DNA of 64,000 bases from Bryobacterales bacterium (GTDB lineage: Bacteria; Acidobacteriota; Terriglobia; Bryobacterales; Bryobacteraceae). The DNA is taken from assembly GCA_963713415.1 (NCBI GenBank), contig CAVQLV010000004.1:945517-1009516 (forward strand), given 5' to 3'. Position 1 is the first letter of the stretch, and each line of letters starts with the position of its first letter. This document shows, one piece after another, positions 27,376-61,663 of the stretch. Position numbers and translations under genes: made by a program. Under the pieces are notes generated by a model. The model saw only the letters and a list, made by a program, of their open reading frames with translations. It searched no databases and had not been told where the DNA came from.

Positions 27376-27407
27376 CACGCATTAATAGGCAAAATGGGGG
27401 CGATAAA

Positions 27408-41857: not shown

Positions 41858-41873
41858 TAGCTGTGGTTCACTT

Positions 41874-42872: not shown

Positions 42873-42891
42873 TGGCAGAAGGAGAATTCGC

Positions 42892-44685: not shown

Positions 44686-45009
44686 GCTTGGCAAACTTCG
44701 GTTAAAGTAACAACGGATGCGTTTTGCCGCCGCGATACCAGCTTGCCTCACCTTGCTGCAGGCATTCTTTGTAGCGCCGTTTTAGCACGTGCATCCCGGC
44801 TCAGACCACGATCAGGGCGCGACGATCCACGCGCATTTCTACCACCTTGCGGCGCCGGGTAAGCAGCACACGGGCCCCGGGCTGGAAAATGCCGACGAGG
44901 ACAATCACGATGCGGTGTGGTCAGTCGATTTTTTACGCTTGTCCAGGCTGCCCCACTGACGCTTTCTGCTCCCGCCCACGCCCGCCTGCCTGCGCAGGCC
45001 TGCCGCGAT

Positions 45010-46964: not shown

Positions 46965-47807
46965 TCAGCCGAGTCCTGGTCCGAGGCGGCGCGGTCTGAT
47001 CTTGGGCCTGCGGGCCCTCTGCCGGTTCATTCGGACGAAGGCTATTTCCGATTCGGCGATCATTGCATCTGCCAGCATTTCCCGCCGGCGAGGGCGGCGC
47101 CGCAGGGTTGGTAGGATCGATCCGTTCCACCACATCAGCACCCCAGTGACGTAGAGAGTCGCCGGCGCTAGACCAGCGAGAATCCAAAGGACGCGGGTGA
47201 AGTTGCCTTCAAAGGTGCCGAAATGAAGCGGGTAGAGATCACGCGTGAAACGAATGGGCCACGAAAGGTCACGGTGGTAGTTGATGCGGGTCACTTGCCC
47301 GGTGTACTGGTCGATGTACACCAAATTATCTCCCGCCCTTCTCCAGTCTCCGGGCAGCATCCGTCGAAGTGAATAGGGCGCATCCTTCTGTTGGGGGAAA
47401 GTGAATAGTGTGGTTTCTCCAACTGGCAACGCGTGCACGGCAGTCGCATAGATCGCGTCCAGATTGATTCGGCGGCTTGCGCCGACTCGCGTCCGCGGCG
47501 CCAGGAGCACGGACGGTTTCCGCGCCGCCCAGCCGGCGATGGCCTCATAAGTCTTCGGGAAAGCAAAGTAGGCTCCGGTCACTGCGACGAACATCAGCAG
47601 CAGGCTCGCGAAGAACCCCGTAAGCCGGTGCAGGTCGTAATTCTTGCGCCGCCACCGCGCCCGCGACTCAAAGCGAAGGGCGGACCTCCAGTGCTTTACG
47701 CCGGGCCACCATACCACCAGCCCGGTGGATGCCAGAACCACCAGCAGAAGGGCGCCAATTCCATTTACAGTCTCGCCCCTTGGACGCAGTGGATCTACGA
47801 TCTTCAT
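46965..47807 (-). CDS. PepSY-associated TM-helix protein, probably 5'-truncated
   Basis: GALLLVVLASTGLVVWWPG...RKNYDLHRLTGFFASLLLMFVAVTGAYFAF...YPLHFGTFEGNFTRVLWILAGLAPATLYVTGVLMWW. The N-terminal TM1 + PepSY part expected for this family is absent. Only 63 nt separate it from the divergent oxidase gene. Confidence 0.65.
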   Translation of the reverse strand: MKIVDPLRPRGETVNGIGALLLVVLASTGLVVWWPGVKHWRSALRFESRARWRRKNYDLHRLTGFFASLLLMFVAVTGAYFAFPKTYEAIAGWAARKPSVLLAPRTRVGASRRINLDAIYATAVHALPVGETTLFTFPQQKDAPYSLRRMLPGDWRRAGDNLVYIDQYTGQVTRINYHRDLSWPIRFTRDLYPLHFGTFEGNFTRVLWILAGLAPATLYVTGVLMWWNGSILPTLRRRPRRREMLADAMIAESEIAFVRMNRQRARRPKIRPRRLGPGLG

Positions 47808-47870: not shown

Positions 47871-49161
47871 ATGCACCGCAGGCGTTTCCTGGCTTCGCTC
47901 GGCGTCGCCGCAGCTCAAAAAGCTATCTTCAGCTCGGAAAAGCCCGACTACACTCTGCGCATAGCGCCTCCTAGCATTGAGATCGCCCCTGGCACGGTGG
48001 TCAAAACGATCGCATACAACGGCTCGGCGCCGGGGCCACTCTTACGGATGGCGGAAGGCAAACCCGTCACCACTCAAGTGTTCAACGACACGCATGAGGC
48101 CGAGTTGGTTCACTGGCACGGATTGCACATCCCGTCGGCAGTCGATGGGTCCAAGGAGGAGGGGACGCCCATGCTTCCTCCGCACGGCTCGGCGGTCTAC
48201 ACATTCACGCCGAAATCGAGCGGCACGCGCTGGTATCACTCGCATGTCCGCGCCGGACAAATCTCAAACGCGCCACTTACACCGGACCGTTCGGGTTTAT
48301 TTTTATAAAGCCTGTGAGCGAGCCTGGTGAGTACGATCAGGAGGTCTTTATCGCGCTTAAAGAGTAGGAGCCTTACCTGTCGAGTGCGGGCGGGGTGAGG
48401 AACTCGCTGGAAGTGGCCTACAACTTTTCGATCAACGGCCAGGCCCTGGGCCACGGAGATCCAATCCGTGTCAAAGCGGGGCAGCGCGTACTTTTCCGCA
48501 TCCTCAATGCCAGCGCAGCCGTGACCCGGCGCATCGCTGCCGCAGCCGTTCCGCAGCAAGTGGGAGCGCTGGGACTCGGGCCGGCCGAGCGTATCGATGC
48601 CATCGTTGAAATGAATCAGCCGGGTGTCTGGATTCTAGGTGCCACTGATGACCACGACCGGGAACATGGGATGGGCACCGTCATCGAGTACTCCGGGCGA
48701 GGTGGCCAACCGCGCTGGACACCTCCGAGCACGGAGCGCTGGGATTACAGAATCTTCGGAAATCCGGGCCACGAAGAGCGGTCATCGTCACCTTTTGAGC
48801 GCATCCTCCGGTCTTCGAGAAGAAGTTTGCCGGCCATCATTGGGTGGATAAGTGGACCATCAACGGCAAAGAATTCCCGAAGACTGATCCAATTCGAGTT
48901 CGGGCCAACCAGGGATATCGCCTGGTATTCGATAATCGCAGTAACGAGGCGCATCCACTGCACCTGCACCGGCACACTTTCGAGCTGACGAAGGTCTAAG
49001 GGAGCGACACTGCCGGAGTATTCAAGGACGTGGTGGTTATTCAGCCCAATTCCAAGCTGGAAGTGAGCTTGACCGCAAATAATCCCGGACTTACCCTGTT
49101 CCACTATCAGCAAATGCATATGGATTACGACTTCACGGCGCTGATGAAATACGCGGGTTAG
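47871..49161 (+). pseudogene. Multicopper oxidase with frameshifts, two nonsense codons and loss of the type-1 Cu cysteine
   Basis: Tat leader MHRRRFLASLG. HWHGLH and WYHSH are present. There is a frameshift near 48255. KE-TAG-EPY at 48365-48367 sits where KEWEPY is expected (a TGG to TAG change). HPLHLHRHTFELTKV is followed by TAA at 48997-48999. The final motif reads LFHYQQMHMDYDF instead of FHCHxxxHMDxGM. Confidence 0.85.
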
Positions 49162-49986
49162 CGGCAAAGCTGGTTCGATCGCTTTGCTCCGCCAAACCGG
49201 CGGCCAAGGATCATTTTGATCAGCAAATGATCGGTCCCGCGAGTGACGCCGACTCCAACGCCAAAGTTGAACTCCCATTTTGGCGATAGGTTCAAATCTA
49301 TTGCCGGCACGATTTGCTGCTCCTGCTGGTACAGGGGATCAAAGTTTCCCACCGGGCCCAAACTGCCGTAGTACTCCAACCCGGCATTGATCTTCGGCGT
49401 GAAATCGTAACCAGTCTTGAAGTCCGGCGCGAATACCACGCCTTGACTCACGCCCGGCCCGTGGAAGCTCCGATCGAAAACGGGATTGAAAGCCAGATAC
49501 CAGCGCCCGACCTGCTTGTCGATGATTGGCCGGACCTCCAGCGTCCAGGTATCGGGAGAACGACGTAACGTTGATAGCCAAACTCGAGAGAAAGGCTCAC
49601 TCCCACCGGCCATTGCCAGGATTCGGGTATGCGCGCCCTCGCCTGATATGATCTCCCACCCACTGCCAGCCGCCTTGATTGGGATTGACACCGGTGAAGA
49701 TGTAAAGTCCGGTCTCAAACCAACCGGTGATGCCCCTGGTGATTTCGACCGTCTCATGCAACTGGTGCTCGGTCCCGTAGACGCCATCCACTACGCCCTT
49801 GCTGCCCTCAACGGCGAAGTTGCTATGCAACTCGATCATGGTTGTGCCTGGGTCTTGAGTTGCCGAAGGATAGACCTGGAGTTCGTAATTTCCCCGGCCG
49901 AGCGCGCACGCCGCGGAGGCGAGAAAAAGAAGTGCGCCAAGCGCCGCATTGTCGCTGAATCTACCGGGCCACAACGTTTTGACCAT
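49158..49986 (-). pseudogene. Outer-membrane beta-barrel protein (paralog of 53600..54422), 2 frameshifts
   Basis: ORFs 49597..50040, 49448..49663 and 49158..49787 tile one protein: signal peptide, NYELQVYPSAT..., ...RIPESWQWPVGVSLSLEFGYQR..., ...LEYYGSLGPVGNFDPLYQQEQQIVPAIDLNLSPKWEFNFGVGVGVTRGTDHLLIKMILGRRF. Confidence 0.65.
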
Positions 49987-50368
49987 CGACGACACCGGAG
50001 AGAAGAATCTTGCCGTCCGTGGATAAAATGCTGGTTGCATTTCCGTGAGTTAAGCCATCCTTCGCACGGCAGCCTTTGACGATGATCTGCTCGCCGATCT
50101 TGAGCGTTGTCCGGGTCCATCCGGATTTCATCAACGTGTTCGGGCTGCCTGCTTCGAAATCCCAGTTCTCTACCTTGCCGGAGTCTTCCTTCACATCAAT
50201 GTAGAAATGGACATGCGGGTTCATCCAGTCGACGCGGGTGACGGTACCGTGTAGCAAGACGGGCCTTGAAGCGTCGTAGTCTGCTGCGAACGAATGATGC
50301 GCTCGTACAGGAGAGGCAACGATACAAAGTACGCAGGAAAGGATCAGTAAGTAGGGAAGGTTTTCCAA
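49961..50368 (-). CDS. Small periplasmic protein (DUF6152-like), predicted mature N-terminus His-His
   Basis: Signal peptide ...IVASPVRA, then HHSFAADYDASRPVLLHGTVTRVDWMNPHVHFYIDVKEDSGKVENWDFEAGSPNTLMKSGW. Paralog at 58377..58781. Confidence 0.8.
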   Translation of the reverse strand: MENLPYLLILSCVLCIVASPVRAHHSFAADYDASRPVLLHGTVTRVDWMNPHVHFYIDVKEDSGKVENWDFEAGSPNTLMKSGWTRTTLKIGEQIIVKGCRAKDGLTHGNATSILSTDGKILLSGVVDGQNVVAR

Positions 50369-50384
50369 GGTCTGGTCAGCTTCC

Positions 50385-50915
50385 TCAGCGCTTCGTGACG
50401 GTTTGAGGGGCCTTCCCCTCGTGCGGCTCGTAGTATCCGATCAGCCGGCCGCAAATCGGTATACTCACCCACAGTATCAGCGAAAGGACGGCGGCAGCTT
50501 TCGCACGTGTGGGTATCGCTGGGGCCTTGTCCAACTCCTCGGGGTGATCGTACACGATGGGTTTAAAAATTAGCGCATGAACTCCAACTAGCAGCAGCAG
50601 CGTCATCTTTGTCCAGAAATAAGGATTGGGATAGTACGTCGGAGCCTCCGAGCCGGCCATGAGAAGCCCGCAAGTGACTATAATCACAAAGCCAATGCGC
50701 TTATAGGGCCGCAGACCTCCTACAACTTCCGCTATGCTCTGATCGCGCAAGGCTAAGCCGAGCAGGCGCAGATCGGTCATCAAGATCATGCCGCCGAACA
50801 CGGCAATGCAACTCACATGCGTGGCCATGATGATGGGATAGACCCACGGAGTCTGCTCAATGCCGGTCATCAAGCTGGTGCTCTGGATCGATTGAAAGAT
50901 GGAATAAAGCGACAT
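50385..50915 (-). CDS. Polytopic membrane protein, type B (B1) of a repeated A/B pair
   Basis: YPIIMATHVSCIAVFGGMILMTDLRLLGLAL...YYPNPYFWTKM...LVGVHALIF...RAKAAAVLSLILW...GRLIGYYEP. Paralogs at 59600..60133 and 60558..61187. Confidence 0.8.
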   Translation of the reverse strand: MSLYSIFQSIQSTSLMTGIEQTPWVYPIIMATHVSCIAVFGGMILMTDLRLLGLALRDQSIAEVVGGLRPYKRIGFVIIVTCGLLMAGSEAPTYYPNPYFWTKMTLLLLVGVHALIFKPIVYDHPEELDKAPAIPTRAKAAAVLSLILWVSIPICGRLIGYYEPHEGKAPQTVTKR

Positions 50916-50921
50916 TGGATA

Positions 50922-51398
50922 TTACGCCAGAAGTCCGGTGAAGAGCCCACCCGTCACCACTGAGACCCACAGCAATACCGAGATGGCTCCCACCACGACG
51001 CCCACTCCAGGGGGCGGGGACGACGAAGCCACCTTGTAGTGGACGGTGTAGTTATAGAGGATCGCGAGGAGCAGCGCCGCTGCCTTGAACCGGAACCAGG
51101 GGCTGAAGTAATACATGCGCGGATCCGTCAAAAACAGCCCCATCCCTGCAAGCACCGTGACCGACAACCCGATCAACGTGTACGCCCAAGTTTCGTGCAG
51201 CAGTTTGGCGGGAGTTGTTCTTGGAAACGCCAAGCCAAGAAGACGCAGGTCTACGATCATAATCGTCCCTATAGCCACGGCGAAAAAGACGATGTGAAAA
51301 CACTCCGCCACCGCGAAGCCCCATTCGGTGTTGTTCAGCAGGTCGGCTATTGCATTCGATTGGAGAAAAGCCGGGGAAGCTACAAATAGATGCATCAC
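50922..51398 (-). CDS. Polytopic membrane protein, type A (A1) of a repeated A/B pair
   Basis: NNTEWGFAVAECFHIVFFAVAIGTIMIVDLRLLGLAF...FLTDPRMYY...YNYTVHYKV...LLWVSVVTGGLF. Paralogs at 60149..60601 and 61208..61663. The ATGA overlaps the upstream gene. Confidence 0.8.
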   Translation of the reverse strand: MMHLFVASPAFLQSNAIADLLNNTEWGFAVAECFHIVFFAVAIGTIMIVDLRLLGLAFPRTTPAKLLHETWAYTLIGLSVTVLAGMGLFLTDPRMYYFSPWFRFKAAALLLAILYNYTVHYKVASSSPPPGVGVVVGAISVLLWVSVVTGGLFTGLLA

Positions 51399-52033
51399 TT
51401 CGCGTCTTGGATCTCCAGATCCGTCTTCTCGTCGCCCGCCATCATCTTCGCGTTGTCGTAGAATCCCGCGGTCACCAGATGAATCTCGACCTCCTTCTTA
51501 CCTTTGTTTTCCCAGAACCAGCCGTGGATGCCAGTGGAAGGCGCGGTGAATGAGCCGCCGGAATGATCTGAGCCGCCCTGATCATTAAGTTCGTAGCTCT
51601 CGAAATAGTCCTTGTTCGGCTTGTTGTCCGGCTCACCGTGGAATTCGAACGCTACTGGCCCCGTGGCTTTCCAGGAGTAAAGCATGCCGGCGGCTTTCTG
51701 CATATGATACTTGACTTCGACGCCTTCGCCGGGCATCAGTGAAAGATCCTCGCTGTCGGTTTTGAAAATTCCGGGCTGCGCGGTGTAAATGCCCGCCGGC
51801 GCGGCGACGGGCCGTGCGCCAACGGGCTTCGATTCCGCCGTCGATTCGGTGGCTTTCGCAAGATCGGTCAAATGCAGTAGCTTGCCTGTCTTCAGCGGAT
51901 CGATCCCATATTCGGCGGGCAGCACGGCCGTCAATAGAATCACGAGCGCGACTGCTAGCGCGATCCCGGTGGCTTTCGCGATTGCTTGCTTCGACGGTGC
52001 CTCCGCCCGCTGAATGTTTTCCTGTTTAACCAT
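51395..52033 (-). CDS. Membrane-anchored periplasmic protein, function unknown
   Basis: ATG at 52033 with AAGGA 6 nt upstream. TM anchor GIALAVALVILLTAVL. Beta-rich domain with FEFHGEPDN and GIHGWFWEN. Confidence 0.7.
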   Translation of the reverse strand: MVKQENIQRAEAPSKQAIAKATGIALAVALVILLTAVLPAEYGIDPLKTGKLLHLTDLAKATESTAESKPVGARPVAAPAGIYTAQPGIFKTDSEDLSLMPGEGVEVKYHMQKAAGMLYSWKATGPVAFEFHGEPDNKPNKDYFESYELNDQGGSDHSGGSFTAPSTGIHGWFWENKGKKEVEIHLVTAGFYDNAKMMAGDEKTDLEIQDAK

Positions 52034-52040
52034 ATAATCC

Positions 52041-52748
52041 TTACGCGGCGGCAAAATAGCCAGTGATCTGATAACCCACCAGTATGAATCCTACGGTCAT
52101 CAGCACCGCGTTCGTCGCAAACGCGTCCCGCAAGAAACTGCCGCGTGTGCGCCAGACGCTCAACACGATCAATATGGCGGTCAACGCCAGCACCTGGCCC
52201 ACTTCCACGCCGACATTAAAGCTTACGATGTTCGTAATCAAGCCGTTCTTTGAGAGAGCCAACTCCTGCAGTTTGGTGGCGAGTCCAAATCCATGAAACA
52301 GGCCGAAAATGAGCACCGCCACTTTCGCATTCGGCTCGAACCCCAGAAACCGCCGAAAGCCATCCATGTTGTCGAACGCTTTGTAGACCACCGAAAAGCC
52401 GATGATCGCATCAATGACGTAGGGGTTGGCATGAGCTCCTCCGAGGACTCCACCCAGCAGCGTGATGCTGTGACCCAGCGTGAACAGACTGACATACTGA
52501 ACGATCTCTTTGAGCCGGTATAAGAAAAAGATGACTCCCACCAGGAAGGCGATGTGGTCATACCCGGTCACCATGTGCTTCGCGCCCAAGTAGACGAAAG
52601 CAGGGATTGCGGCCCCCTGATTCGATTCGACAAAAGACGCATCGCGTTTCGAGACGTTGTGCGCCATGGCGGCGCCGGGAAACACGAGCATCGCGAGGAT
52701 GAAGAGAATCGCCGCAGCCGCGGCCAAGCGGCGAGATAGGGCGGTCAT
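52041..52748 (-). CDS. hupE: HupE/UreJ-family membrane protein
   Basis: Signal peptide ...GAAMA, then HNVS..., GYDHIAFLVGVIFFL, FTLGHSITLL, FGLFHGFGLA, NVGVEVGQ. The start at 52748 overlaps the upstream stop (ATGA). Confidence 0.8.
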   Translation of the reverse strand: MTALSRRLAAAAAILFILAMLVFPGAAMAHNVSKRDASFVESNQGAAIPAFVYLGAKHMVTGYDHIAFLVGVIFFLYRLKEIVQYVSLFTLGHSITLLGGVLGGAHANPYVIDAIIGFSVVYKAFDNMDGFRRFLGFEPNAKVAVLIFGLFHGFGLATKLQELALSKNGLITNIVSFNVGVEVGQVLALTAILIVLSVWRTRGSFLRDAFATNAVLMTVGFILVGYQITGYFAAA

Positions 52749-53296
52749 TTGCACCGATCCGCCAGGTCCGGCTTTTCGCGCCATTTATCGTGGCAGTTGG
52801 AGCAAGCCGTGCTCAAGTCTCCCGCCGCCGTTACGATGTCGTCCTTCTTGGACTGTGCGGCCTTGTAGCTCTCAAGGCTCGCGGCCCGCAGACCCTGGAC
52901 GAATTTAGGCCAATCCGGGTTGTTGATCGGAACTGGAAGCCCGTTACCGCATTTGCGCCCGGGAAGAATCAGAAGATTGGCGGCTTCCGAAAGAGCTCTT
53001 GCACTGTTCTCCACAGCCGTCCAGCCGCCGTAGGTACTGGCAAGAGGATTCGGCGACAGCGAGGGGTCCTTCGCCGGCGGCACCTTGGCGGGATCGTCTT
53101 CTTGAGCGAAAAAGATCACATTAGAGTTGGGGAAGAGGATACCGCGCATGAGCTGGCGCAAGTCTGCAACGACCTCCGGTTTCATGGCCGCCGATTTGGG
53201 AGCCTTGGCCGCGTTGGAGCGGGCTGGCCCCGGCGATTGCGCCTGGCAGACTCCCAAGATGGTTAGAGAGAAGAAAGCTGTTACTATGCGAGACAT
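52745..53296 (-). CDS. Class II (cytochrome c'-like) c-type cytochrome
   Basis: Signal peptide. Single CSNCHDKWR heme motif about 15 residues from the C-terminus, preceded by long helical segments. This is the class II cytochrome c layout. Confidence 0.65.
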   Translation of the reverse strand: MSRIVTAFFSLTILGVCQAQSPGPARSNAAKAPKSAAMKPEVVADLRQLMRGILFPNSNVIFFAQEDDPAKVPPAKDPSLSPNPLASTYGGWTAVENSARALSEAANLLILPGRKCGNGLPVPINNPDWPKFVQGLRAASLESYKAAQSKKDDIVTAAGDLSTACSNCHDKWREKPDLADRCK

Positions 53297-53583
53297 TCCT
53301 GGTGACCTTTCATACCAGCAGACTTACTCTGGCGGTTCGCCTTTCCACGACTTCATGGCCTGCCACATCGGTGGGCTGGGGCGCCTAAAAAAATCCCTCA
53401 TCCATTTGCTTTTCCCACCCGCGTTCGAGGCTCTGCGAGTGCGCCTCGTCCCCTTCACCGAAACCTTTGAGCGGCGTCGCACGCTGTGCCCCTCCCCGAG
53501 AGTTGATTTGTTCATGGACAGACAGACCTGGAAAGGGTATCACTGAGTTACCCGAAATCCATGGCTCTCATAGTCATCGAGCG

Positions 53584-53603
53584 GTCAGTGACCGGTCACT
53601 CAC
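53584..53603. promoter_or_regulatory. 20-bp palindrome, copy 1 (GTCAGTGACCGGTCACTCAC)
   Basis: Near-perfect inverted repeat, about 290 bp upstream of the cytochrome c' operon start. Related copies at 61782-61801 and 62704-62723. Confidence 0.55.
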
Positions 53604-54422
53604 CATTGCGATTCATGGGTTTGCCGCCTATCGTGCTTCCGGCCGAACTCATATTCCAATCGCGACTTGAGCACCAGCTCATGACTCCCGTCCGTAGTGC
53701 CGAACCCCGCTCCGAAGCTCCAGGCGAACCGTGCTCCGATCTTCCAATCTGCTCCGGGAAACACCAGGTGGGTCTGATTTGCCAGTGGCGAGAAATTTCC
53801 GAGCGGTCCCAGCGCTGAGTAGTACTCGACGCTCGGCGTCAGGGTTCGCCATTGTTGCCATCCCAGCCTGGCCGATGGCTCCACGCCCCAGCCGAGCGAG
53901 GTCCCCGTGCCGTGCAGCGCCCGGGCGAAGACGATATTTCCGTCCATTTGCAACCGTCCGATGTGCTTCTCAACGATCCCGCGCAGCTCCACCTGCCGCG
54001 TGTCCTGATCGAAGACCGGACGTTCGAACGAAAACTCGGCCACGAACCCCAAGTTCAACGGCAAGCCCCAGGACTTCGGCGCGTAGAAATGCGGAAGCAC
54101 CCGAAAGCCGGCATACTGCCAGCCGAGGCCGGGAACCCACGCGGTCAGAACAACGGCGCCAAAGCGTACTTCGTCGGTCAGGCCGGCTGTCCATTCCGAG
54201 CTCGCATGCAACTGATTCTGCTCCGGTGCCACAGGCCCATCGAATTTCGCCGTCCCATCGGCCACATAATGTAACATGCGACTCATAGGTAAGTGAGCCG
54301 AGCGGCAGAGGCTCATATTCAAATACTTGAATCTCAAATGGATCTTGTGCATAAGCAGCAAGACCGATCGACAGCAATAGCCATCGACAGCAATACATAG
54401 ATCCTCCTAATCGCGAACTCAA
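53600..54422 (-). pseudogene. Outer-membrane beta-barrel protein (paralog of 49158..49986), 1 frameshift
   Basis: ORF 53970..54422 (signal peptide, DPFEIQVFEYEPLPLGSLTYESH) joins ORF 53600..54361 (LHYVADGTAKFDG...VEYYSALGPLGNFSPLANQTHLVFPGADWKIGARFAWSFGAGFGTTDGSHELVLKSRLEYEF) near 54270. Confidence 0.65.
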
Positions 54423-54437
54423 GAATCGAGCGGGCGA

Positions 54438-54731
54438 TTAGGAGCGGGGAGGATGATCGAGACGCGGCGCAGGCTTTTCGGTCAGCTGGGGGACAGGGGC
54501 CGGGGTGACGCGCTCGATGAGAGACGCGACAAAGCTATGCGTGCGCGCCGGAAACCCGGTATGGAGCGAGCAATAGGCGCAATCGTGGCAGGAACAATCG
54601 GAACCGCTTGGCGTCGTAGACCCAGCGTAGTGGTCGTGATAGTCCTCGGCCATGCACACGGCCATCTGGGTGCAGATGGCCATGAGCACAAGTAGCGCCA
54701 GCCAGCGAATGAGGCTCCTCCTCCGAGGCAT
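54438..54731 (-). CDS. Small membrane-anchored Cys/His-rich protein
   Basis: 97 aa. TM helix IRWLALLVLMAICTQMAV, then EDYHDHYAGSTTPSGSDCSCHDCAYCSLH. It lies directly downstream of the TBDR. Confidence 0.6.
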   Translation of the reverse strand: MPRRRSLIRWLALLVLMAICTQMAVCMAEDYHDHYAGSTTPSGSDCSCHDCAYCSLHTGFPARTHSFVASLIERVTPAPVPQLTEKPAPRLDHPPRS

Positions 54732-54757
54732 TCTTGAAAACCCGTTCTGCGAGCCGC

Positions 54758-57700
54758 TCAGAAGCGCAGCTTCACGGCAGCCTGCATTAAACGAGGCGCG
54801 GCCGCGCTGACCACGTGTCCGAAATCGGGATCGGAGTCCACGCCCTCCACGGATTGCGGTCCATAAAACTGCGCATGGTTGAAGACATTGAAGGCTTCCA
54901 TCCGGATATCCAGGGTCATCGATTCTCTAAGCCGGATGATCTTGCTGAGCTGCACATCGAAGTTTTCGATGCCGGGCCCTTGGAAGCTGCGCCGGCTGGA
55001 ATTGCCCAATACTCCCAAGGGCTCCACCTCGAAAGCGCTGGTATTGAATACCGGCTTGCCGTTGCGGGGATTCTCGTTTAGGTTGAGCGGGCCGCCCAAG
55101 TACTCGGGCGTGTCTAACAAATAGTTATTCACGCCGTTGCCGAGGGTTCCCAAGAGTGAGTTGTCGGAGTTGTCAATGAGCGTCACGGGCAGCCCAGAGG
55201 AAAAACGGCTGGTGCCGGACAAGCTCCATCCATCGGTCAGGCGATTCCGCCCAAAGAAGCGCTCGAATGGCAGATTGTACGTGTACGTGATGACGACATT
55301 CTGAGGGATGTTCCAGGCCGAAATCGCGCGAGTCAATCCCAGGTTGAAGGGGTTAGTGTCCTCGCCGAGGTACGATGCATCATCGATGGACTTGGACCAG
55401 GTATAGCCTACCAGGAGCGTGGAGCGTGAGCCGATGGTCGCGCGAAGGGTAATTTCCAGCGAGTTATAGTTGGAATTTCCGATGGTCTTTTGCAGCGTGA
55501 CCGATCCGTAATCCGGTCCAAGGCCGACACGCGTGCCCTGGTACGTCTGTCCGGATGCGGATGTATAGCTGGCGTCCTCACCGTAGGGACCGCAAGTCAG
55601 TGTGCCCGGAGCTACCTGGCTCGGTTGGCTCAGGCTCAGGCATAGTGCCGCGTTTCCGTTATTGGCTGGCTGTAACACCAGGATGTGATGGCCCTGGTTC
55701 CCTGCATAGCTAACCGTGAGCAAAGTGTTCTGGCCGAACTGCCGTTGAACGGAAAACATGTAATTTTCCGTGTAGGGCACGGTGTCTTTGGAATAGAATT
55801 CGGGCGCCGCGCTGATCGGCGTAACCGCGGCCCAATCAAATCCGGTATAGGGGTCCTTTTGAGAGACGTTGTTGGGAGGAAAATGAAATGGATAGGGATC
55901 GGTTTGCACCACTCCGTCGCCCGAATCGATGAAGGGCTGGGCGAACTCGGGAGGAGCGGGGCTCAAGTAGTTGTATCCCCACGGTGGCACGCCGTACATG
56001 ATGCCGGCGTCGATGCCCTGGAAGGCGGTGTAGAAGATTCCGTAGCTGGCCCGGATGCTGCTCTTGCCCGATTCGCCAAAAATCGCCTTCAAAAATCTAT
56101 TTCCAAAATTTGGAGAATAGGCTAGTCCGATCCTGGGCGCGAAGGCGTGATTGTCTGGAGGCGAGAGAGTGGGAGGAATGCCAGGGTCGCCGGGCACCAG
56201 AAGGTCAGGCAATGCGTTGGGGAAAAGAACCGACTGCCGGCCGGGAACGATGGTCTGAAGGTTGTTGTATTTGTCCGACCAGGGCTCGATCCGCTCCCAC
56301 CGCAACCCGTAATTCACCGTCAGGTTCGGCCGCGCTTTCCAGCTATCCTCAACGAACGCGGCGTAATAGCGATTTCGCAGATAGAAATGCTGGCCGGTGG
56401 TCTGGGTGAAATTGCTCGGCAAGCCCAGCAGATAATCGGCGAACGGCGATCCGGTCTCGGACCCAAGGAAGCTGAACGTTCCGTTAAAGGTGCCGTTCGG
56501 ACTTTCATTGACCTGGTTGTTATGAAATTGAGCGCCAAACTTAATCGTGTGCGCGCCCCACACCTTTGAGATGGCATCGCTCAGATAAAGCGTATTGTTC
56601 CATTGATCCGCGTTGGTAATAGGAACGCCCATGACGAAGTCTGGGAAGACCAGGTTCTCCACGCCTTCAAACTGCGGCGCTTGCACCACGAGGCCCCCGT
56701 TTTGAGGTCCTTGGACGAATCCCTGCGAGGCTATGGATACTCCGGTTCCTCCGTGAGGTTGTCCAATGAAATTCACGTTCCGCAGGAAGCCGGCATGAGC
56801 TTCGTTGACCATGGTCGGGCTTAGGATCTTGGTGTCGCCAATGCTGATCTCCTGCGCCTGTCCGGGGGTCAGGGCGTCAAAGCCAGGAACGCTTGCACCG
56901 CCCTGTCCGCCCGGATATGGATTGTCCACTATGTAGTTGTCGACGAAATAGTAGCCGAAGATATTGCCGGCGCGCGTGTTGGCGTCGATGCGGGCGCCAG
57001 CCTTGTCGTCCCGGTCTGTTTCAGGGAAGGCCGACGTAGAAAAAAGGTTGGAACCGATGTTCGCAGTGGGAATGTATTTCAGCAGGTTATGCGCGACCGG
57101 CGACCAAACCGATTGGGGAATGATTGCTCCGGGGAATACGCATTGAGAGCTGGACCCGCAGCCCGGTGTATAAAAGGGTTCGCCCACGTTCACGTTATAG
57201 CCGAGCTTGGATGCCAATTGGCCCGCCTGGTAGGCCGCAGGCACGGTCCCGGTCAACAGGCTGGCCGAATCGCTAAAGTTGCCGGCGCGCTCCTGATTCG
57301 ACATAACCGTGGTTACCGGCGATGTGATGCCTTGCGTGGTCTTGGTGTGCTGATAGTCCAGGAAAAAGAAAAGCTTGTTTTTTAGGATCGGCCCGCCGAT
57401 GGTACCGCCGGGCTGATTCTGCTGGTAGAGCCCTCGCTTCGCGTCAAAGAAGTTCTTGGCATCCAGGTCGGTGTTCCTAAGGAACTCGAAAGCGCTGCCA
57501 TGGAATTGGTTGCTCCCGGACCGGGTAATGACGTTGACCATTCCGCCGTTGTAATTGCCGTACTCCGTGTCGAAGTTGTTAGTTAGGACCCGGAACTCCT
57601 CGATCGAATCCAGGTTCGGAATCACGGACGTTCCGCCGTTCATCCCTTCCTGGACGTCGATCGCATTCACCATGAAGCCATTGGCAGATTCGCGTTGTCC

Positions 57701-58291
57701 ATCGATGGAAATGTTACCGGGATTCAAGGCGCCGGATGGATTGATGGTGCCAGTGACGCCCGCCATGATGATGGACGTTGGGGTCGAGGTTGTGACAGGG
57801 GTGACGCCTGGTTGGATAGCAAGAAGGTCGGTATAACTACGACCGTTCAGAGGAATCGCCTGAATCTGCTGCTCTGATACCACCTCGCCGAGGTGGGTCG
57901 CCACCGTATCAGGCTGGGTTTGCAAGTTCTCTTCCGAGGCGGACACCGTGACCGTCTCGGTTTGCTCACCGACCGATAATTCTGCGTCTAGCGTTACGGC
58001 GGCGTCTGTGTCGATGGCAATATTGGTCTTCTTCTGTGGCTTGAAGCCGGTGGCGTCGATGGTCAGGTCGTACTTGCCGACCGGAAGTGCGGGAAAAGAA
58101 TAGGATCCGCGGGCGTCTGAGATGGTCGTAAACTGTGCCTTGGTGTCCACGTTCACTAAGGTGAGCTTGCCGCCGGAGATCACGGCGCCAGTGGGGTCTT
58201 TCAGCACGCCGGAGAGGCTGCCAGCGGCGAACCCCCACAATACGGAGGCACAAAAGAGTGACAACGCGATCTGCACCAGACGTTCGATCAT
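54758..58291 (-). CDS. Large TonB-dependent receptor with a CarboxypepD_reg N-domain (1177 aa), intact
   Basis: Start trimmed to the ATG at 58291 (MIERLVQIALSLFCASVLWGFAAGSLSGVLKDPTGAVISGGKLTLVN...). Plug and barrel motifs. C-terminus ...LMQAAVKLRF*. Confidence 0.9.
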   Translation of the reverse strand: MIERLVQIALSLFCASVLWGFAAGSLSGVLKDPTGAVISGGKLTLVNVDTKAQFTTISDARGSYSFPALPVGKYDLTIDATGFKPQKKTNIAIDTDAAVTLDAELSVGEQTETVTVSASEENLQTQPDTVATHLGEVVSEQQIQAIPLNGRSYTDLLAIQPGVTPVTTSTPTSIIMAGVTGTINPSGALNPGNISIDGQRESANGFMVNAIDVQEGMNGGTSVIPNLDSIEEFRVLTNNFDTEYGNYNGGMVNVITRSGSNQFHGSAFEFLRNTDLDAKNFFDAKRGLYQQNQPGGTIGGPILKNKLFFFLDYQHTKTTQGITSPVTTVMSNQERAGNFSDSASLLTGTVPAAYQAGQLASKLGYNVNVGEPFYTPGCGSSSQCVFPGAIIPQSVWSPVAHNLLKYIPTANIGSNLFSTSAFPETDRDDKAGARIDANTRAGNIFGYYFVDNYIVDNPYPGGQGGASVPGFDALTPGQAQEISIGDTKILSPTMVNEAHAGFLRNVNFIGQPHGGTGVSIASQGFVQGPQNGGLVVQAPQFEGVENLVFPDFVMGVPITNADQWNNTLYLSDAISKVWGAHTIKFGAQFHNNQVNESPNGTFNGTFSFLGSETGSPFADYLLGLPSNFTQTTGQHFYLRNRYYAAFVEDSWKARPNLTVNYGLRWERIEPWSDKYNNLQTIVPGRQSVLFPNALPDLLVPGDPGIPPTLSPPDNHAFAPRIGLAYSPNFGNRFLKAIFGESGKSSIRASYGIFYTAFQGIDAGIMYGVPPWGYNYLSPAPPEFAQPFIDSGDGVVQTDPYPFHFPPNNVSQKDPYTGFDWAAVTPISAAPEFYSKDTVPYTENYMFSVQRQFGQNTLLTVSYAGNQGHHILVLQPANNGNAALCLSLSQPSQVAPGTLTCGPYGEDASYTSASGQTYQGTRVGLGPDYGSVTLQKTIGNSNYNSLEITLRATIGSRSTLLVGYTWSKSIDDASYLGEDTNPFNLGLTRAISAWNIPQNVVITYTYNLPFERFFGRNRLTDGWSLSGTSRFSSGLPVTLIDNSDNSLLGTLGNGVNNYLLDTPEYLGGPLNLNENPRNGKPVFNTSAFEVEPLGVLGNSSRRSFQGPGIENFDVQLSKIIRLRESMTLDIRMEAFNVFNHAQFYGPQSVEGVDSDPDFGHVVSAAAPRLMQAAVKLRF

Positions 58292-58376
58292 TCTAGTACG
58301 CTCATCATTTGTAAAATCCTTTGGCGTTTTGCGCCAATTTCTAAGCAAGACCGCGAGCCCACTGCGATTGTGTGAC

Positions 58377-58781
58377 TTAGTGCCCAGGGGTTGACTCAGG
58401 GGCGATGCCATCCAATACCTTGTGCCCGTTCGCCAGAATTACTTTCCTGGCGGTTGCAACGTTCGCCCCATCGCGCGCCGGGAAGGCTACGACCGTGACC
58501 CGGTCGCCGACCTTCAGCGTGTCGCGCAGCCAGCCCATCCGGGCCAAGGTATTCGGGCCCGCTCCCTCAAAGGCCCAATTTGTAACTTTCTGACGGGCGT
58601 CCTTCACGTCCACATAAAAGTAGATATGCGGGTTGCTCCAATCCACCCGCGTAATTACACCGGAGTAGGTAATCTGCCGATTCACATCGAACTCAGCCGA
58701 AACGGAATGGTGAGCAAAGATGGGGGCCGCTGCTACCAGCAACAGCCCCGAGGGGAAGAGAATCGCTAACTTATGTTTCAT
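58377..58781 (-). CDS. Small periplasmic protein (DUF6152-like), predicted mature N-terminus His-His
   Basis: ATG at 58781. Signal peptide ...AAAPIFA, then HHSVSAEFDVNRQITYSGVITRVDWSNPHIYFYVDVKDARQKVTNWAFEGAGPNTLARMGW. Confidence 0.8.
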   Translation of the reverse strand: MKHKLAILFPSGLLLVAAAPIFAHHSVSAEFDVNRQITYSGVITRVDWSNPHIYFYVDVKDARQKVTNWAFEGAGPNTLARMGWLRDTLKVGDRVTVVAFPARDGANVATARKVILANGHKVLDGIAPESTPGH

Positions 58782-58883
58782 CTGGCACAAACCTCGTGAA
58801 GTCTGCAGAGCGAGGCTACCACGCGGGCGGCGCAAATTAGACGAATCGAAGGTCAACTTTTGGTCATTGACGCTCGAAACGTG

Positions 58884-58910
58884 GTCACTGACCCGTGCAA
58901 ATCATTTGCA
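58884..58910. promoter_or_regulatory. Operator candidates upstream of the DUF6152-TBDR operon: palindrome half-site + 7-1-7 Fur-family-like box
   Basis: GTCACTGACC (58884-58893) equals the left half of the 20-bp palindrome. TGCAAAT-C-ATTTGCA (58896-58910) is a perfect 7-1-7 inverted repeat, 115 bp upstream of the ATG at 58781. Confidence 0.45.
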
Positions 58911-59599
58911 TCAAGGGAGATAGCGCAGCGAGTCCACGGGGGCGTGCGGCAAGGGATGAACGATCCAAGTTTCGGTTTTAGCTTGCGTTCACGTCGTCAC
59001 CTCGGCCGCAGGAATGATGGGTGCGAAACCTGCGCTTGCTTCTAACCCTTCGTCACTGAACGGCAAACGACCCGTTGAAGAGTAAGGTCTTAAGGTTGCC
59101 CGCGCTCCTGGTGCGAGTGAACGACACCTCCGATTCAGCCCTGTACATCGACCTGAAAACCGTGCGCCTGGTGGAAGCGTACGGACGGCGGTCTCGCATC
59201 AACCGGTTCCCGCTGGGGCGTAGGCACTTGTCTAAGCATCAATTCAGTGATTCTTGGCTTCGAGCTACAAAGGGCGGTCAAGTGGCTGTGACGTGCTTCA
59301 TGGGTACCCAAAGCAATCCGCGCCAACAGATCGCGCTTTCGCACGGCGGCGGGACCAGGTTTACCAAGCCGATAGTGTTGAACACCGGCCAAGCGTTCGG
59401 CTATACCTCGATGGCGCTGAAGCAGGATGGCGCGAAGGCCCAGGTACGACAAGTGAGCTCCCAGGGAGTCGCTGGGACGGTTGCAGAAGTTGCCAAAGGA
59501 GGCTTTTGGCAGCCCGGCGACTCTTTGATCGCTTCCGGCAGCGCCAAGCACATCGAGACAGCCAGTCTCGGCGTCAAGCAGCGAGCGCTGTTGCGGTCG

Positions 59600-60133
59600 C
59601 TATTTGGTTTGCGCGGTCGAAACCACGTGGCCTTTTTGCTGAGGCGGTTCGTAGTAGCCGATGAGGCGGCCATTACAAAGGACAGCGGTCCAGATGATTA
59701 GCGAAAGCGCCCCCGCAACCTTGGCGCGCGTGGGAATCACCGGAGACGCATCCAGCTCCTCGGGATGATTGTAGACCAGGGGCCGGAAGATAATCGCGTG
59801 GATCAAAACCAGCACCAGACACGACATCTTAACCCAGAAGTAGGGATTCGGATAGTAATCAGCGGCCTTTGAGCCGAAGAGCGTGAATCCCATGGCGAAC
59901 ATAATGATGAAGCCGGTGCGTTTCCACCAGCGCAATCCGTTTACGACGTCGGCGATGGTTTTATCCTGGAACCCCCACCCGAGCAGCCGCAGATCGGTGA
60001 TCACGATCAGGCCGCCGAAGATCGCGATACACGTCAGATGCGTGCTCATGACGATTGGATATTCCAAACCGGACTCGCGGATAAAGGTCATGAAGCTCAG
60101 GCTTTGAAGCCATTGAAAAAGTTCGAGAATCAC
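59600..60133 (-). CDS. Polytopic membrane protein, type B (B2)
   Basis: YPIVMSTHLTCIAIFGGLIVITDLRLLGWGF...YYPNPYFWVKM...LIHAIIF...RAKVAGALSLIIW...GRLIGYYEP. Confidence 0.8.
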   Translation of the reverse strand: MILELFQWLQSLSFMTFIRESGLEYPIVMSTHLTCIAIFGGLIVITDLRLLGWGFQDKTIADVVNGLRWWKRTGFIIMFAMGFTLFGSKAADYYPNPYFWVKMSCLVLVLIHAIIFRPLVYNHPEELDASPVIPTRAKVAGALSLIIWTAVLCNGRLIGYYEPPQQKGHVVSTAQTK

Positions 60134-60148
60134 ATTTGCCTCCAGGCG

Positions 60149-60601
60149 TTACGCGAACGCGATGAATAGACCACCGAATACGACGCTGATCCATAGCGCC
60201 AAAGAGATGATGGCGGTTGCGACCCGCACCGGCTTGGTCGCGGTGTCCGACTTGGCGATCTTCCAATGAATCGTGAAATTAAAGATGAGCGCGATTGCGA
60301 GCGCGTACATCTTGAAGACGAAAGACGGATTGTTAAGGTACATCCGCACATCCGACAGAAAGAGAATGGGGCCAGACAGGAGCACGACCGCGAGCCCAAT
60401 AATGGTCCAGGGCGCCGTGTCGCGCAAAACCTCCGAGGGTTTGGAATGCTGAATACCGAAGCCCAGCAGCTTGTAATCAACTGCGGCGATCATCCCGATC
60501 GACCAGGCGAAAGCCGCTATGTGAAAGCATTCAGCGATTGGAAAAACCCATTCTGAACTATTCAGCGCGTCCGCTACGGATTGTATTTGCAGAAGCAACA
60601 T
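60149..60601 (-). CDS. Polytopic membrane protein, type A (A2)
   Basis: NSSEWVFPIAECFHIAAFAWSIGMIAAVDYKLLGFGI...FLSDVRMYL...FNFTIHWKI...LALWISVVFGGLF. Confidence 0.8.
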   Translation of the reverse strand: MLLLQIQSVADALNSSEWVFPIAECFHIAAFAWSIGMIAAVDYKLLGFGIQHSKPSEVLRDTAPWTIIGLAVVLLSGPILFLSDVRMYLNNPSFVFKMYALAIALIFNFTIHWKIAKSDTATKPVRVATAIISLALWISVVFGGLFIAFA

Positions 60602-61187
60602 CTTGGTGGTCCTGTCCTTTCACTGTGTGTCTGTTCACCGAGCGCGCCAGCATCGCCCAGCTGGCTCCATGGACTTCCGCATGGATCTTGTCGAGCGGTG
60701 GCTCGATATAGCCGATTCCCCGCCCACAGCAGGCCACCGCAGTCCAAAGGAGGAGGGACAGAGTGGCCGCTACCTTGGCACGCGATGGCGCGGTTGAAAG
60801 ACGGTCGAGCTTGGCGGGATCGGCATAAACGCTCCGGTAGAAAACTACAGCATGCACGATCAGCAAGCCAAAGAGAATCAGCTTGGTTCGAAAAAACGCG
60901 TTGTAGTAGTACTCTTCGGCTTTCGAGCCGAACAGTAGAAATCCGCAGGTAGCGGTGAGCAGCAATCCCCAGCGCTTCGGTACGCGGAACTGGTTGACGA
61001 CGTCGGCGATAGATCTTTTCCGCATAGCCCAGCCGAGAAGCCGCATATCCGTCATCAGGATCATCCCGCCAAAAAAGGCTATCCCCACCATGTGCAGCGA
61101 CATGACGATCGGATAGACGTCGGCTGAGCCGCGGAGCGCAGTAAAAAAGCTGGTGAACTGAAGCCATTGAACCAATGAGAGCAGCAT
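60558..61187 (-). CDS. Polytopic membrane protein, type B (B3) with an extended C-tail
   Basis: YPIVMSLHMVGIAFFGGMILMTDMRLLGWAM...IVHAVVF...RAKVAATLSLLLW...GRGIGYIEP. The 3' end overlaps A2 by 44 nt. Confidence 0.75.
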   Translation of the reverse strand: MLLSLVQWLQFTSFFTALRGSADVYPIVMSLHMVGIAFFGGMILMTDMRLLGWAMRKRSIADVVNQFRVPKRWGLLLTATCGFLLFGSKAEEYYYNAFFRTKLILFGLLIVHAVVFYRSVYADPAKLDRLSTAPSRAKVAATLSLLLWTAVACCGRGIGYIEPPLDKIHAEVHGASWAMLARSVNRHTVKGQDHQDVASANTIRSGRAE

Positions 61188-61207
61188 GGGACATTCAAAT
61201 CTCGTGT

Positions 61208-61663
61208 TCAGATTCCGACACTCAAGCCCGGATAGATGAAGCCGATGAAAATACCGCCAAAAATGACGCCCGCCCAGAGAATAAGAGAGATGCAGGCAAC
61301 CGCCTTCCCGTTATGAGGCGGCGACTCCGATACCAAAGCTCGCCGATGAATGGTGTAATGAAAAACCACGGCCGACACAAAGACAGCCATCTTGATAAGG
61401 AAAGCCCAGTTGAGATAATAGCTGTCCGGGTCCGAGGAGAATAGCAAGAGACCGGAGAACAGCATCAGCACCAAGCCGCTGAGCGTCCACAGCCAGGTAT
61501 CCTTGGCGAGCTCGGCAGGCGATTCGCGCGTCCCGGCAACGCCGAGGAGTGAAAAATCCACGATGGCGATGGTCCCGATCGAAATCGCGAATCCGACGAT
61601 ATGGAAGCACTCCAGGATTGGGAAGACCAGTTCGGATGAGTTTAGCGGATTAGTAATGAACAC
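61208..61663 (-). CDS. Polytopic membrane protein, type A (A3)
   Basis: NSSELVFPILECFHIVGFAISIGTIAIVDFSLLGVAG...FSSDPDSYY...FHYTIHRRA...LILWAGVIFGGIF. Confidence 0.8.
   Translation of the reverse strand: MFITNPLNSSELVFPILECFHIVGFAISIGTIAIVDFSLLGVAGTRESPAELAKDTWLWTLSGLVLMLFSGLLLFSSDPDSYYLNWAFLIKMAVFVSAVVFHYTIHRRALVSESPPHNGKAVACISLILWAGVIFGGIFIGFIYPGLSVGI

Follow-up and report, generated by a model that had tools for sequence, protein, structure and literature searches.

A composite envelope gene cluster beside caa3-type oxidase genes in a Bryobacterales bacterium and its possible role in copper handling

We analyzed a stretch of 64,000 nt from a Bryobacterales bacterium (assembly GCA_963713415.1, contig CAVQLV010000004.1, positions 945,517–1,009,516 of the forward strand), in the following called the window. 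It contains a series of minus-strand genes, running from position 61663 down to 49158, next to genes for a caa3-type cytochrome oxidase. These genes encode six membrane proteins (A1–A3 and B1–B3), two small exported proteins (HH1 and HH2), two putative outer-membrane barrels, a TonB-dependent receptor (TBDR), a small Cys/His-rich protein, a c-type cytochrome, a HupE_UreJ_2 membrane protein and a membrane-anchored periplasmic protein (Table 1). A preliminary description made from the DNA sequence had placed all these open reading frames (ORFs) correctly, and the family labels it suggested were right: according to Pfam, the six A and B proteins belong to DUF6644 and the two HH proteins to DUF6152. 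Its interpretation was that two operons carry paralogous versions of one trans-envelope module, perhaps for copper. The span of the components across the envelope is plausible, and they are indeed uncharacterized, as we found no mention of DUF6152, DUF6644 or HupE_UreJ_2 (PF13795) in the literature searched; the two papers that mention DUF2214, a family with distant matches to A/B, do not deal with its function according to title and abstract. Some of the families have an entry as DUF, others have none. For comparison we used about 170 related loci. The relatives of the window are labeled Bryobacteraceae/Bryobacterales, Acidobacteriota. The synteny of most relatives with the full array is not independent, as these all come from one family.

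Gene content and modular organization

The A and B proteins scored between 31.8 and 61.9 bits against DUF6644 (PF20349), and HH1 and HH2 reached 107.9 and 104.5 bits against DUF6152 (PF19649), with a Pfam gathering cut-off of 27 in both cases. Sequence identity is 51–57% among the B proteins, 44–48% among the A proteins, 28–34% between A and B, about 40% between HH1 and HH2 and about 31% between the two barrels. Judged by these values, the paralogy of the two arrays is real but old. The genes from the cytochrome to barrel 1 are separated by 16 nt or less, or overlap, as had been described.

We then counted how often these families occur together, using HMM searches at the ORF level on contigs that were partly short. 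In the DUF6152 census, 80 loci from genomes of different species were searched with phmmer and a profile HMM for DUF6644 genes within 10 kb. Such a gene was present in seven loci and lacking in 73, and a barrel fragment was found in one of the 80. In the DUF6644 census of 80 metagenome loci, the 37 with at least 5 kb were counted for their neighbors, yielding cox or cta genes (within 2.5 kb of A/B) in 19 cases, a TBDR in ten, HH in eight, the HupE block in six and a barrel in one. Barrel 1 is missing after HH1 in L001, L005, L086 and L091, and barrel 2 is missing or a remnant in L086, L091, L113, L094 and L083. The proposed core of A/B, HH and barrel, present in two paralogous versions, is not borne out by these neighborhoods, and both censuses rule it out as a universal unit. 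The locus consists of three separately conserved modules and not of two copies of a four-part machine.

The first module is the quartet A3-B3-A2-B2. A adjoins B in all 19 DUF6644 loci with flanking sequence, and the array COX2-COX1-x-CtaG-CtaA-A-B-A-B was found in L089 and in at least 15 metagenome contigs. The adjacency of A/B and cox genes is kept in co-directional, convergent (L138, L156, L158) and, as in the window, divergent layouts. The copies nearest to A2, B2, A3 and B3 accompany CtaA, CtaG and COX1, and those nearest to A1 and B1 accompany the c'-like cytochrome, HupE, the anchored protein and HH. The quartet is an appendage of the oxidase and heme A genes. At L083 (2302–5277, minus strand), the heme A synthase gene ctaA lies between two A-B pairs (A-B-CtaA-A-B), and in L128, L141 and L160 B is followed by CtaA. 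L089 (3701–8395) and similar contigs carry COX2-COX1-129 aa-CtaG-52 aa-CtaA plus the quartet, without a recognizable gene for subunit III.

Between B2 and HH2, a gap of 0.8 kb had been noted inside what was taken as a single second operon. The size holds (815 nt), but the gap is not empty: on the plus strand, it contains what is left of a BNR_2-like gene. In L172, an intact copy (387 aa, BNR_2) stands at the equivalent place, and a convergent BNR_2-like gene follows A-B-A-B in 12 of the 37 loci. With a remnant in the gap and an intact convergent gene in relatives, the supposed operon falls into two units, and the remnant shows where the quartet and the HH2-TBDR unit were formerly separated.

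The second module, HH followed by a TBDR, with or without leader and barrel, recurs on its own; this gene order was found in L091, L093, L094, L101, L113, L135, L138, L168 and L172. The 3.6-kb TBDR gene of the window is intact and encodes 1177 aa if translation starts at M41 of the 1217-aa ORF. In Pfam, it matched CarboxypepD_reg, OMP_b-brl_4 (604.7 bits) and TonB_dep_Rec_b-barrel (7.9e-05). The plug region (residues 149–306) matched NCBIfam models of ligand-gated channels and gave no match to the Pfam Plug model.

The third module, c'-like cytochrome-HupE-anchored protein-A-B-HH, recurs as well. HH1 follows B1 in L001, L088, L091, L093, L095, L097, L105 and L137, and the next gene 3' of HH1 varies, being barrel 1 in the window, DinB in L001, an intact multicopper oxidase (MCO) gene in L005 and a BNR_2-like gene in L086. 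The HupE_UreJ_2 protein scored 179.7 bits (cut-off 24.5). Its anchored neighbor had no match in Pfam, NCBIfam or the PDB and is part of a large family without a name, for which 1473 representatives were found. Both are joined in a natural fusion protein, P0410 (497 aa), which suggests that they work together. The match of the cytochrome to the cytochrome c' family (PF01322) is weak (19.1 bits, cut-off 26.5), with only the C-terminal 35 residues including CSNCH aligned, and cytochrome c' in the PDB was matched with E = 0.018. Cytochromes of this c'-like type also lie beside HH or TBDR in L008, L045, L088, L123 and L170. The second and third modules form one co-directional array, HH-TBDR-(barrel)-cytochrome c'-HupE-anchored protein-A-B-HH, in L001, L086/87, L091/92, L094, L113 and L172.

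Apart from weak matches for the TBDR, NCBIfam named no component, and Rfam gave no match between 47 and 64 kb of the window. Scans for promoters and terminators yielded counts not above those of shuffled controls.

Table 1 Features of the locus in window coordinates, listed in the direction of minus-strand transcription; the oxidase genes are placed last.
Feature	Coordinates	Strand	Evidence and remarks
A3, DUF6644 membrane protein	61208..61663	-	Pfam DUF6644 7.2e-09; first gene of the oxidase-linked A-B-A-B quartet
B3, DUF6644 membrane protein	60558..61187	-	Pfam 1.9e-11; 51% identity to B1
A2, DUF6644 membrane protein	60149..60601	-	Pfam 2.3e-09
B2, DUF6644 membrane protein	59600..60133	-	Pfam 5.7e-15; 57% identity to B1; last gene of the quartet
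BNR_2-like gene remnant, convergent	59264..59494	+	tblastn with the 390-aa protein of L086, 1e-10, residues 263-352
HH2, DUF6152 exported protein	58377..58781	-	Pfam 3.4e-30
TonB-dependent receptor with CarboxypepD_reg N-domain, plug-like region and OMP_b-brl_4 barrel	54758..58291	-	Pfam 4.3e-181
DUF2946 (CruR/CutF-like) leader peptide	54438..54731	-	Pfam 24.8 bits, cut-off 23.7
RNA helix, leader 3' end with barrel 2 Shine-Dalgarno sequence	54403..54445	-	minimum free energy -24.4 kcal/mol, z = -3.96
Barrel 2, putative 12-strand outer-membrane barrel	53600..54398	-	+1 insertion near 54270
Putative class II (c'-like) c-type cytochrome, C-terminal CSNCH	52745..53296	-	Pfam Cytochrom_C_2 0.0027, below cut-off
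HupE_UreJ_2 membrane protein, putative metal permease	52041..52784	-	Pfam 4.1e-53
Membrane-anchored periplasmic protein, partner of HupE_UreJ_2	51395..52054	-	family of 1473 representatives
A1, DUF6644 membrane protein	50922..51398	-	Pfam 1.9e-07
B1, DUF6644 membrane protein	50385..50915	-	Pfam DUF6644 1e-16, DUF2214 1.4e-05
HH1, DUF6152 exported protein	49961..50368	-	Pfam 2.9e-31
Barrel 1, paralogue of barrel 2	49158..49986	-	two single-base deletions
Multicopper oxidase pseudogene, convergent with barrel 1	47871..49158	+	full-length match to the 446-aa MCO of L005
PepSY_TM protein, possibly 5'-truncated	46965..47807	-	Pfam 4.9e-35, profile positions 134-294 of 295
COX2 (with cytochrome c domain) and start of COX1, divergent from the quartet	62794..64000	+	Pfam COX2, COX2_TM, Cytochrom_C; tblastn COX2 8e-134, COX1 2e-29

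A DUF2946 leader and an RNA helix upstream of barrel 2

The small Cys/His-rich protein between the TBDR and barrel 2 passed the DUF2946 cut-off narrowly (24.8 versus 23.7 bits). This is the family of CruR from Bordetella and CutF from Rhodobacter, two experimentally studied copper-sensing leader peptides (PMC9426467, PMC9973294). Both are exported nascent peptides in which a Cys motif and a Pro-containing C-terminus sense copper and control the gene downstream (PMC9426467, PMC9973294). A fitness link between DUF2946 and a copper TBDR has been reported as well (10.1101/072470). The peptide encoded in the window has a hydrophobic N-terminus with an export signal (LALLVLMAICTQMAV), the Cys cluster CSCHDCAYC (within GSDCSCHDCAYCSLH) and the C-terminus PRLDHPPRS directly before the stop codon. 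Its gene follows the TBDR gene and is separated from barrel 2 by 39 nt. The motifs are kept in L001, L005, L172 and the distant L170, and in all five loci the leader stands directly upstream of a barrel, with a spacing to the barrel start of 39–44 nt, or about 210 nt in L005. In L170, conservation of the leader is limited to the Cys cluster and the terminal DHPPRS; the L170 barrel shares 55% identity with barrel 2 of L001 and lies in another gene context.

The last codons and the stop codon of the leader (GCUCCUAAUCGC) pair with the Shine-Dalgarno (SD) sequence of barrel 2 (GCGAUUAGGAGG). This pairing exists in all five loci, between the last codons plus stop (GCUCCUAA…) and the barrel SD (…UUAGGAG), and minimum free energy folds closed by the SD helix were also obtained for L001, L172, L170 and, even across a spacer of 211 nt, L005, with z-scores from -3.0 to -4.3. 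These results come from folds of the individual sequences and from the duplex energies of the arms. Outside the CUCC/GGAG core, the arm bases vary by locus, and each arm pairs best with its own partner, except for the 5' arm of L172, which pairs slightly better with the 3' arm of L005. The arms of the helix co-vary. When the leader-barrel spacers were aligned with MAFFT, RNAalifold returned no structure, the 3' arms being misaligned.

By its sequence motifs and position, the DUF2946 peptide is a candidate CruR/CutF-type copper-sensing leader of the barrel, an assignment that is new here. The leader-SD helix has the design known from CutF, in which a ribosome stalled on the leader opens a stem-loop that covers the SD, and by this analogy the barrel is very probably a copper-regulated envelope protein. 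The gene arrangement also resembles CruR (Bp2923)-BfrG-PepSY_TM in Bordetella pertussis and CutF-CutO-CutG in Rhodobacter capsulatus, where an exported Cys-cluster peptide with a Pro-containing C-terminus likewise precedes a copper-related envelope gene. As here, the downstream SD of cutF-cutO lies under a stem-loop (PMC9973294), and the Bordetella CruR operon has a TBDR and a PepSY_TM gene nearby (PMC9426467). For CruR, the RNA element acts by Rho-dependent termination, and for CutF it is the SD-covering stem-loop (PMC9426467, PMC9973294). There are, however, several differences. The presumed target here is a small barrel from a family without a name, instead of a TonB-dependent transporter or an MCO, and the TBDR gene precedes the leader. 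CxCxxCxxC and DHPPRS take the place of CXXC/CxxxC and RAPP, with 37–40 instead of about 45 residues from Cys to Pro, and the host belongs to the Acidobacteriota, while most described members are from proteobacteria.

Barrel 2 aligns, across two frames, with an intact 256-aa protein of L001 at 65% identity over 255 aa. Its family comprises 503 hits carrying no other name than ‘hypothetical’, without a Pfam match and without a relative in the PDB, PcoB included. The protein is taken for an outer-membrane barrel because it has a signal peptide and no transmembrane (TM) helix, and because its beta-amphipathic moment exceeds that of shuffled sequences by about 4 sd.

Conserved residues, predicted folds and broken genes

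In an AlphaFold2 (AF2) model (mean confidence, pLDDT, 83), HH1 consists of a signal peptide and an OB-fold barrel. Foldseek returned generic OB folds (PriB, SSB, LysRS) first and CcmE at rank 16. In 31 diverse DUF6152 members, the His-His pair (H24/H25) directly after the predicted signal-peptide cleavage site (HHSFAA following the last A of the signal) is invariant, as are D32, W48, N50-P51-H52 (within W-x-NPH), K60, W69 and E72. N-terminal His-His residues exposed by signal-peptide cleavage are typical of Cu(II) sites and not of heme ligation. A free N-terminal His with a second His beside it and a further His in a loop would be the combination expected of a Cu(II) site. The HH proteins had no match to CopC, PCuAC or CusF in Pfam, and a sequence search of the PDB yielded nothing significant.

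The usual neighbor of DUF6152 is an unrelated exported protein of 250–290 aa without a Pfam family, encoded directly downstream in most cases and matched in 73 loci if the query locus L003/L004 is counted. It is characterized by the motifs DGHPD.SG.W and GHWEGDT.V.DT (examples are L003:10442-11242, L012:11322-12098 and L089:10673-11512), had no significant match in a PDB sequence search and is missing from the window. In some cases this protein and DUF6152 form a single fusion protein (L012:8736-9872), and in L089 and L143 its gene is also found behind the A-B-A-B quartet. At L088, the A-B-HH unit is preceded by two more divergent DUF6644-like genes (7880–9461), one of them encoding a 315-aa protein with an extra N-terminal multi-TM domain and an HxxxNHFP motif, and is followed by a gene for a 583-aa protein, whose C-terminal half is similar to this partner, and then by a c'-like cytochrome gene.

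The AF2 model of B1 (pLDDT 88) is a 4-TM bundle of four long helices. One His in TM1 is invariant in every A and B protein (His33 in B1), and B proteins have a second one in TM3; further invariant residues are Y94, K103 and W149. By the positive-inside rule, the invariant residues H33, Y94, N97-P98, W101 and K103 of B1 are predicted to cluster toward the periplasmic face. Foldseek found no fold in the PDB below E = 0.3 for B1 (root-mean-square deviation, rmsd, of the hits 7–13 Å), and searching the PDB with DUF6644 sequences gave nothing significant. Five of the six A/B proteins had sub-threshold matches to DUF2214, the best at 1.4e-05. An identity of DUF6644 with COX3 was rejected: a profile search against Paracoccus COX3 gave E = 0.21, COX3 chains in Foldseek had probabilities of 0.18–0.51 at E > 1, and Pfam COX3 did not match.

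Both barrel genes are disrupted, as noted before. Three single-base corrections restore proteins of 276 aa (barrel 1) and 265 aa (barrel 2), with no other lesion. In barrel 1, one base each is missing from a G-run near 49641 (49636–49647) and from a T-run near 49558 (49554–49567), and barrel 2 carries one extra base near 54270. Barrel 1 aligns in three frames, with 84–86% identity, to the intact protein that follows B1 in L094 and L096, and intact orthologs of barrel 2 exist in L001, L005 and L172. The three barrel indels may be sequencing errors. Long-read error as the cause of all frameshifts is ruled out for the MCO pseudogene, which besides two frameshifts has two in-frame stops and a 14-aa deletion and has lost the Cys of the type-1 copper motif HCHQQMH. 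Exact-sequence look-ups of P0006 and of B1 from the window returned no contig, and hence no second assembly for comparing the frameshifts. The TBDR and the remaining genes of the arrays carry no lesions, and their junctions are tight or overlap. Since these genes are undamaged, the lesions cluster here instead of being spread evenly. From the state of their reading frames, both barrels and the MCO appear broken in this genome, and the TBDR, HH, HupE and A/B proteins are likely still active.

The window contains further genes and gene remnants. The PepSY_TM gene abuts the MCO pseudogene and covers only the C-terminal half of its profile, so that a truncation is possible; in L168, a 282-aa ORF scoring as a PepSY_TM homolog follows A-B-B. 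A 393-aa ORF without a match in Pfam or NCBIfam (45769–46950, minus strand) separates PepSY_TM from a lone C-terminal fragment of a resistance-nodulation-division (RND) pump (44847–45719, plus strand; ACR_tran, profile positions 811–1015). Genes of mobile elements lie at 4053–11231, 20084–20737 and 34793–36091 (Replic_Relax, a TrwB/TraG-type coupling protein with helix-turn-helix, an IstB-like fragment and a Mutator-family transposase); the window is thus a mosaic, rearranged region. An intact RND efflux trio at 27243–33078 (plus strand; OEP, CusB-type HlyD_D23, ACR_tran) is CusCBA-like in composition. From 37623 to 44685 on the plus strand, an extracytoplasmic function (ECF) sigma factor, a zf-HC2 anti-sigma factor, a TBDR, two small or unknown ORFs and a 597-aa pyrroloquinoline quinone (PQQ) dehydrogenase are encoded in one direction, which looks like a separate surface-signaling and uptake unit.

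Copper handling as candidate function and its alternatives

We suggest that the locus is a composite copper-handling neighborhood beside caa3-type oxidase genes, built from three independently conserved modules, and give this reading a probability of about one half. It is based on the family of the leader, the MCO in the operon of L005, PepSY_TM, the linkage with cox, CtaG and CtaA, and the CusCBA-like pump. The earlier guess of copper thereby gains independent support from the DUF2946 leader family, from the MCO beside HH1 (a pseudogene here; in L005 its intact ortholog directly follows HH1 and is co-operonic) and from the linkage of DUF6644 with COX2, COX1, CtaG and CtaA. PepSY_TM adjoins here and in L168, and the same family accompanies DUF2946 and a TonB-dependent transporter in the Bordetella copper operon (PMC9426467).

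From the observed gene identities, module boundaries, linkage statistics, fold classes and the leader-SD helix, a scheme can be drawn; the metal, the way it travels and each hand-off between proteins are inferred. Copper would cross the outer membrane via the TBDR and/or the barrel. In the periplasm, it would be bound by the OB-fold HH protein via its free N-terminal His-His and the NPH loop and be handed over to inner-membrane A/B heterodimers and to the HupE-anchored protein pair. The c-type cytochrome would possibly set the Cu(II)/Cu(I) state, and cuproenzymes, namely the oxidase and the multicopper oxidase, would be the copper sinks. The quartet would serve the maturation of the oxidase by supplying copper or by handling both copper and heme a at the membrane. 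The leader would sense periplasmic copper, with its last codons sequestering the ribosome-binding site of the barrel, and a ribosome that pauses on …DHPPRS would unfold the helix, so that copper would set barrel translation, on or off. We put forward only tentatively that these parts make up an unrecognized copper supply chain of Acidobacteria and some other soil bacteria, with DUF6152 as an OB-fold His-His metallochaperone, DUF6644 A/B proteins delivering copper, or copper and heme a, for caa3 maturation, and a copper-channel barrel controlled by a CutF-like leader, as a non-homologous analog of the CopABCD and Pcu systems.

The set of MCO, barrel, HH and A/B parallels CopA, CopB, CopC and CopD in envelope logic and in the clustering of the genes, as in CopABCD/PcoABCD (Pseudomonas syringae, Escherichia coli plasmids) and the chromosomal YobA-YebZ (CopC-CopD) pair, and the MCO gene directly following HH1 in L005 adds to this likeness. 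Both casts comprise an MCO of the periplasm, a small barrel in the outer membrane, a small exported protein for metal binding, putative in the case of HH, and a helical inner-membrane protein with His residues. There is no detectable homology, except for the MCO, the sole true homolog, which is a pseudogene here. CopC is an Ig-like sandwich, whereas HH has an OB fold; DUF6644 forms two 4-TM chains with no significant match to the CopD-like YebZ; and the barrel matches nothing in the PDB, PcoB included. The PcuABCDE system of Bradyrhizobium diazoefficiens, which supplies copper to aa3 oxidase when copper is limiting, likewise comprises several envelope genes connected with the biogenesis of cytochrome oxidase, and consists of TBDR-like, periplasmic chaperone, CopD-like and PepSY-like parts. 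Unlike it, the locus described here has no PCuAC-type chaperone and no recognizable CopD, and its linkage is to CtaA/CtaG and structural cox genes. Deletion of pcuABCDE abolishes aa3 oxidase activity (PMC6669012). The HH protein also resembles CusF, a periplasmic OB-fold Cu(I)/Ag(I) chaperone: it is small and exported, has an OB-type barrel of five strands and could ferry metal between envelope transporters. However, it lacks a Pfam CusF match, and the conserved columns contain His-His, Asp, Trp, Asn-Pro-His and Glu instead of the His-Met-Met set.

Several points weigh against the copper reading. DUF6152 is mostly paired with another protein and may have its general role without A/B, and HH has no Met-rich Cu(I) motif of the CusF type. 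TBDRs of this kind are very common in Acidobacteria (four in the window), and some chance adjacency is expected. DUF6644 could not be linked to CopD (PF05425), as Pfam CopD gave no match at E ≤ 10 and the comparison with YebZ of E. coli reached only 0.56% probability over 14 columns in hhalign and 1.6 bits in hmmsearch; the sole likeness is the His-TM motif, although a remote DUF6644-CopD homology may exist. HupE-type proteins, finally, are classically Ni/Co permeases according to their family description, which also speaks for the uptake of another metal or chelate (Ni/Co, Zn, Fe or a lanthanide), with the copper-related neighbors being coincidental in a general metal island. This alternative could further draw on the PQQ dehydrogenase and the ECF sigma/TBDR set 5–12 kb away, and on a PQQ dehydrogenase near DUF6152 in L003, and one paper retrieved for DUF2946 deals, by its title, with TonB-dependent zinc acquisition in Caulobacter (PMC4176598). 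We consider it quite unlikely, since the recurrently linked enzymes are the cuproenzymes COX1/COX2, CtaG and MCO, hydrogenase, urease or Ni/Co enzyme genes did not occur beside the module in the loci examined, and linkage to PQQ dehydrogenase is rare (4 of 80 loci). Moreover, copper is the metal to which the two DUF2946 members studied by experiment respond (PMC9426467, PMC9973294).

Another possibility, rather unlikely in our view, is a heme or redox module, in which A and B would be heme-binding four-helix-bundle membrane proteins acting as an electron conduit or, with CtaA, in the handling of heme a or heme, and electrons or heme would be passed on to the c'-type cytochrome and a CcmE-like OB-fold HH. 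The invariant TM1 His of all A and B proteins and the second His in TM3 of B fit this idea, as does CtaA, the tightest neighbor and even positioned between A-B pairs in L083, and a c-type cytochrome shares the operon. The best folds found for B1, all non-significant, are heme-related (CcmC with E = 0.3 and probability 0.89, SpNOX, bd oxidase), but none of them came below E = 0.3 and their rmsd is large; CcmE is among the hits for HH, but is outranked by generic OB folds. A purely heme-related function would also leave the copper-sensing leader, MCO, PepSY_TM, HupE and TBDR unexplained, and the N-terminal His-His argues for Cu(II) rather than heme. Finally, the genes might have no common function and be neighbors by shared ancestry in one lineage, their synteny being an artefact of a rearranged, decaying region. 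Pseudogenes and fragments (MCO, both barrels, the ACR_tran fragment, the possibly truncated PepSY_TM), mobile-element genes in the window and the restriction of the full array almost entirely to Bryobacteraceae-like relatives could be explained in this way. It is nevertheless improbable, as the adjacency of A/B and cox/cta survives three orientations and the insertion of CtaA, and HH-A-B, B-A-HH and HH-TBDR recur in differently built loci, including metagenome-assembled genomes labeled Rhodospirillaceae and Gammaproteobacteria (L033, L026). The seven of 80 DUF6152 loci with DUF6644 are, in a rough estimate, about ninefold above expectation for a family with few loci per genome. The fusion of HupE with its partner in P0410 and the intact, tightly spaced or overlapping genes outside the barrels also argue against it.

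The proposed copper-handling neighborhood belongs to a known kind, the envelope metal trafficking cluster. New are its modular architecture, the linkage of DUF6644 with the oxidase, the N-terminal His-His OB fold and the predicted control of the barrel by leader and anti-SD. To our knowledge, detailed accounts of how copper is delivered to cuproenzymes such as cytochrome oxidase come only from Bacillus and a few proteobacteria. The metal economy of Acidobacteria, which count among the most abundant bacteria in soil, has received almost no study as far as we know. Our analysis ties DUF6644 firmly to the oxidase/heme A operon and adds to the range of CruR/CutF-type leaders another phylum, another target gene and a very compact RNA layout, with the stop region of the leader serving as the anti-SD. 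It also provides testable roles for five families without a function: DUF6152, DUF6644, HupE_UreJ_2, the anchored partner (about 1500 cluster representatives) and the barrel (about 500 hits).

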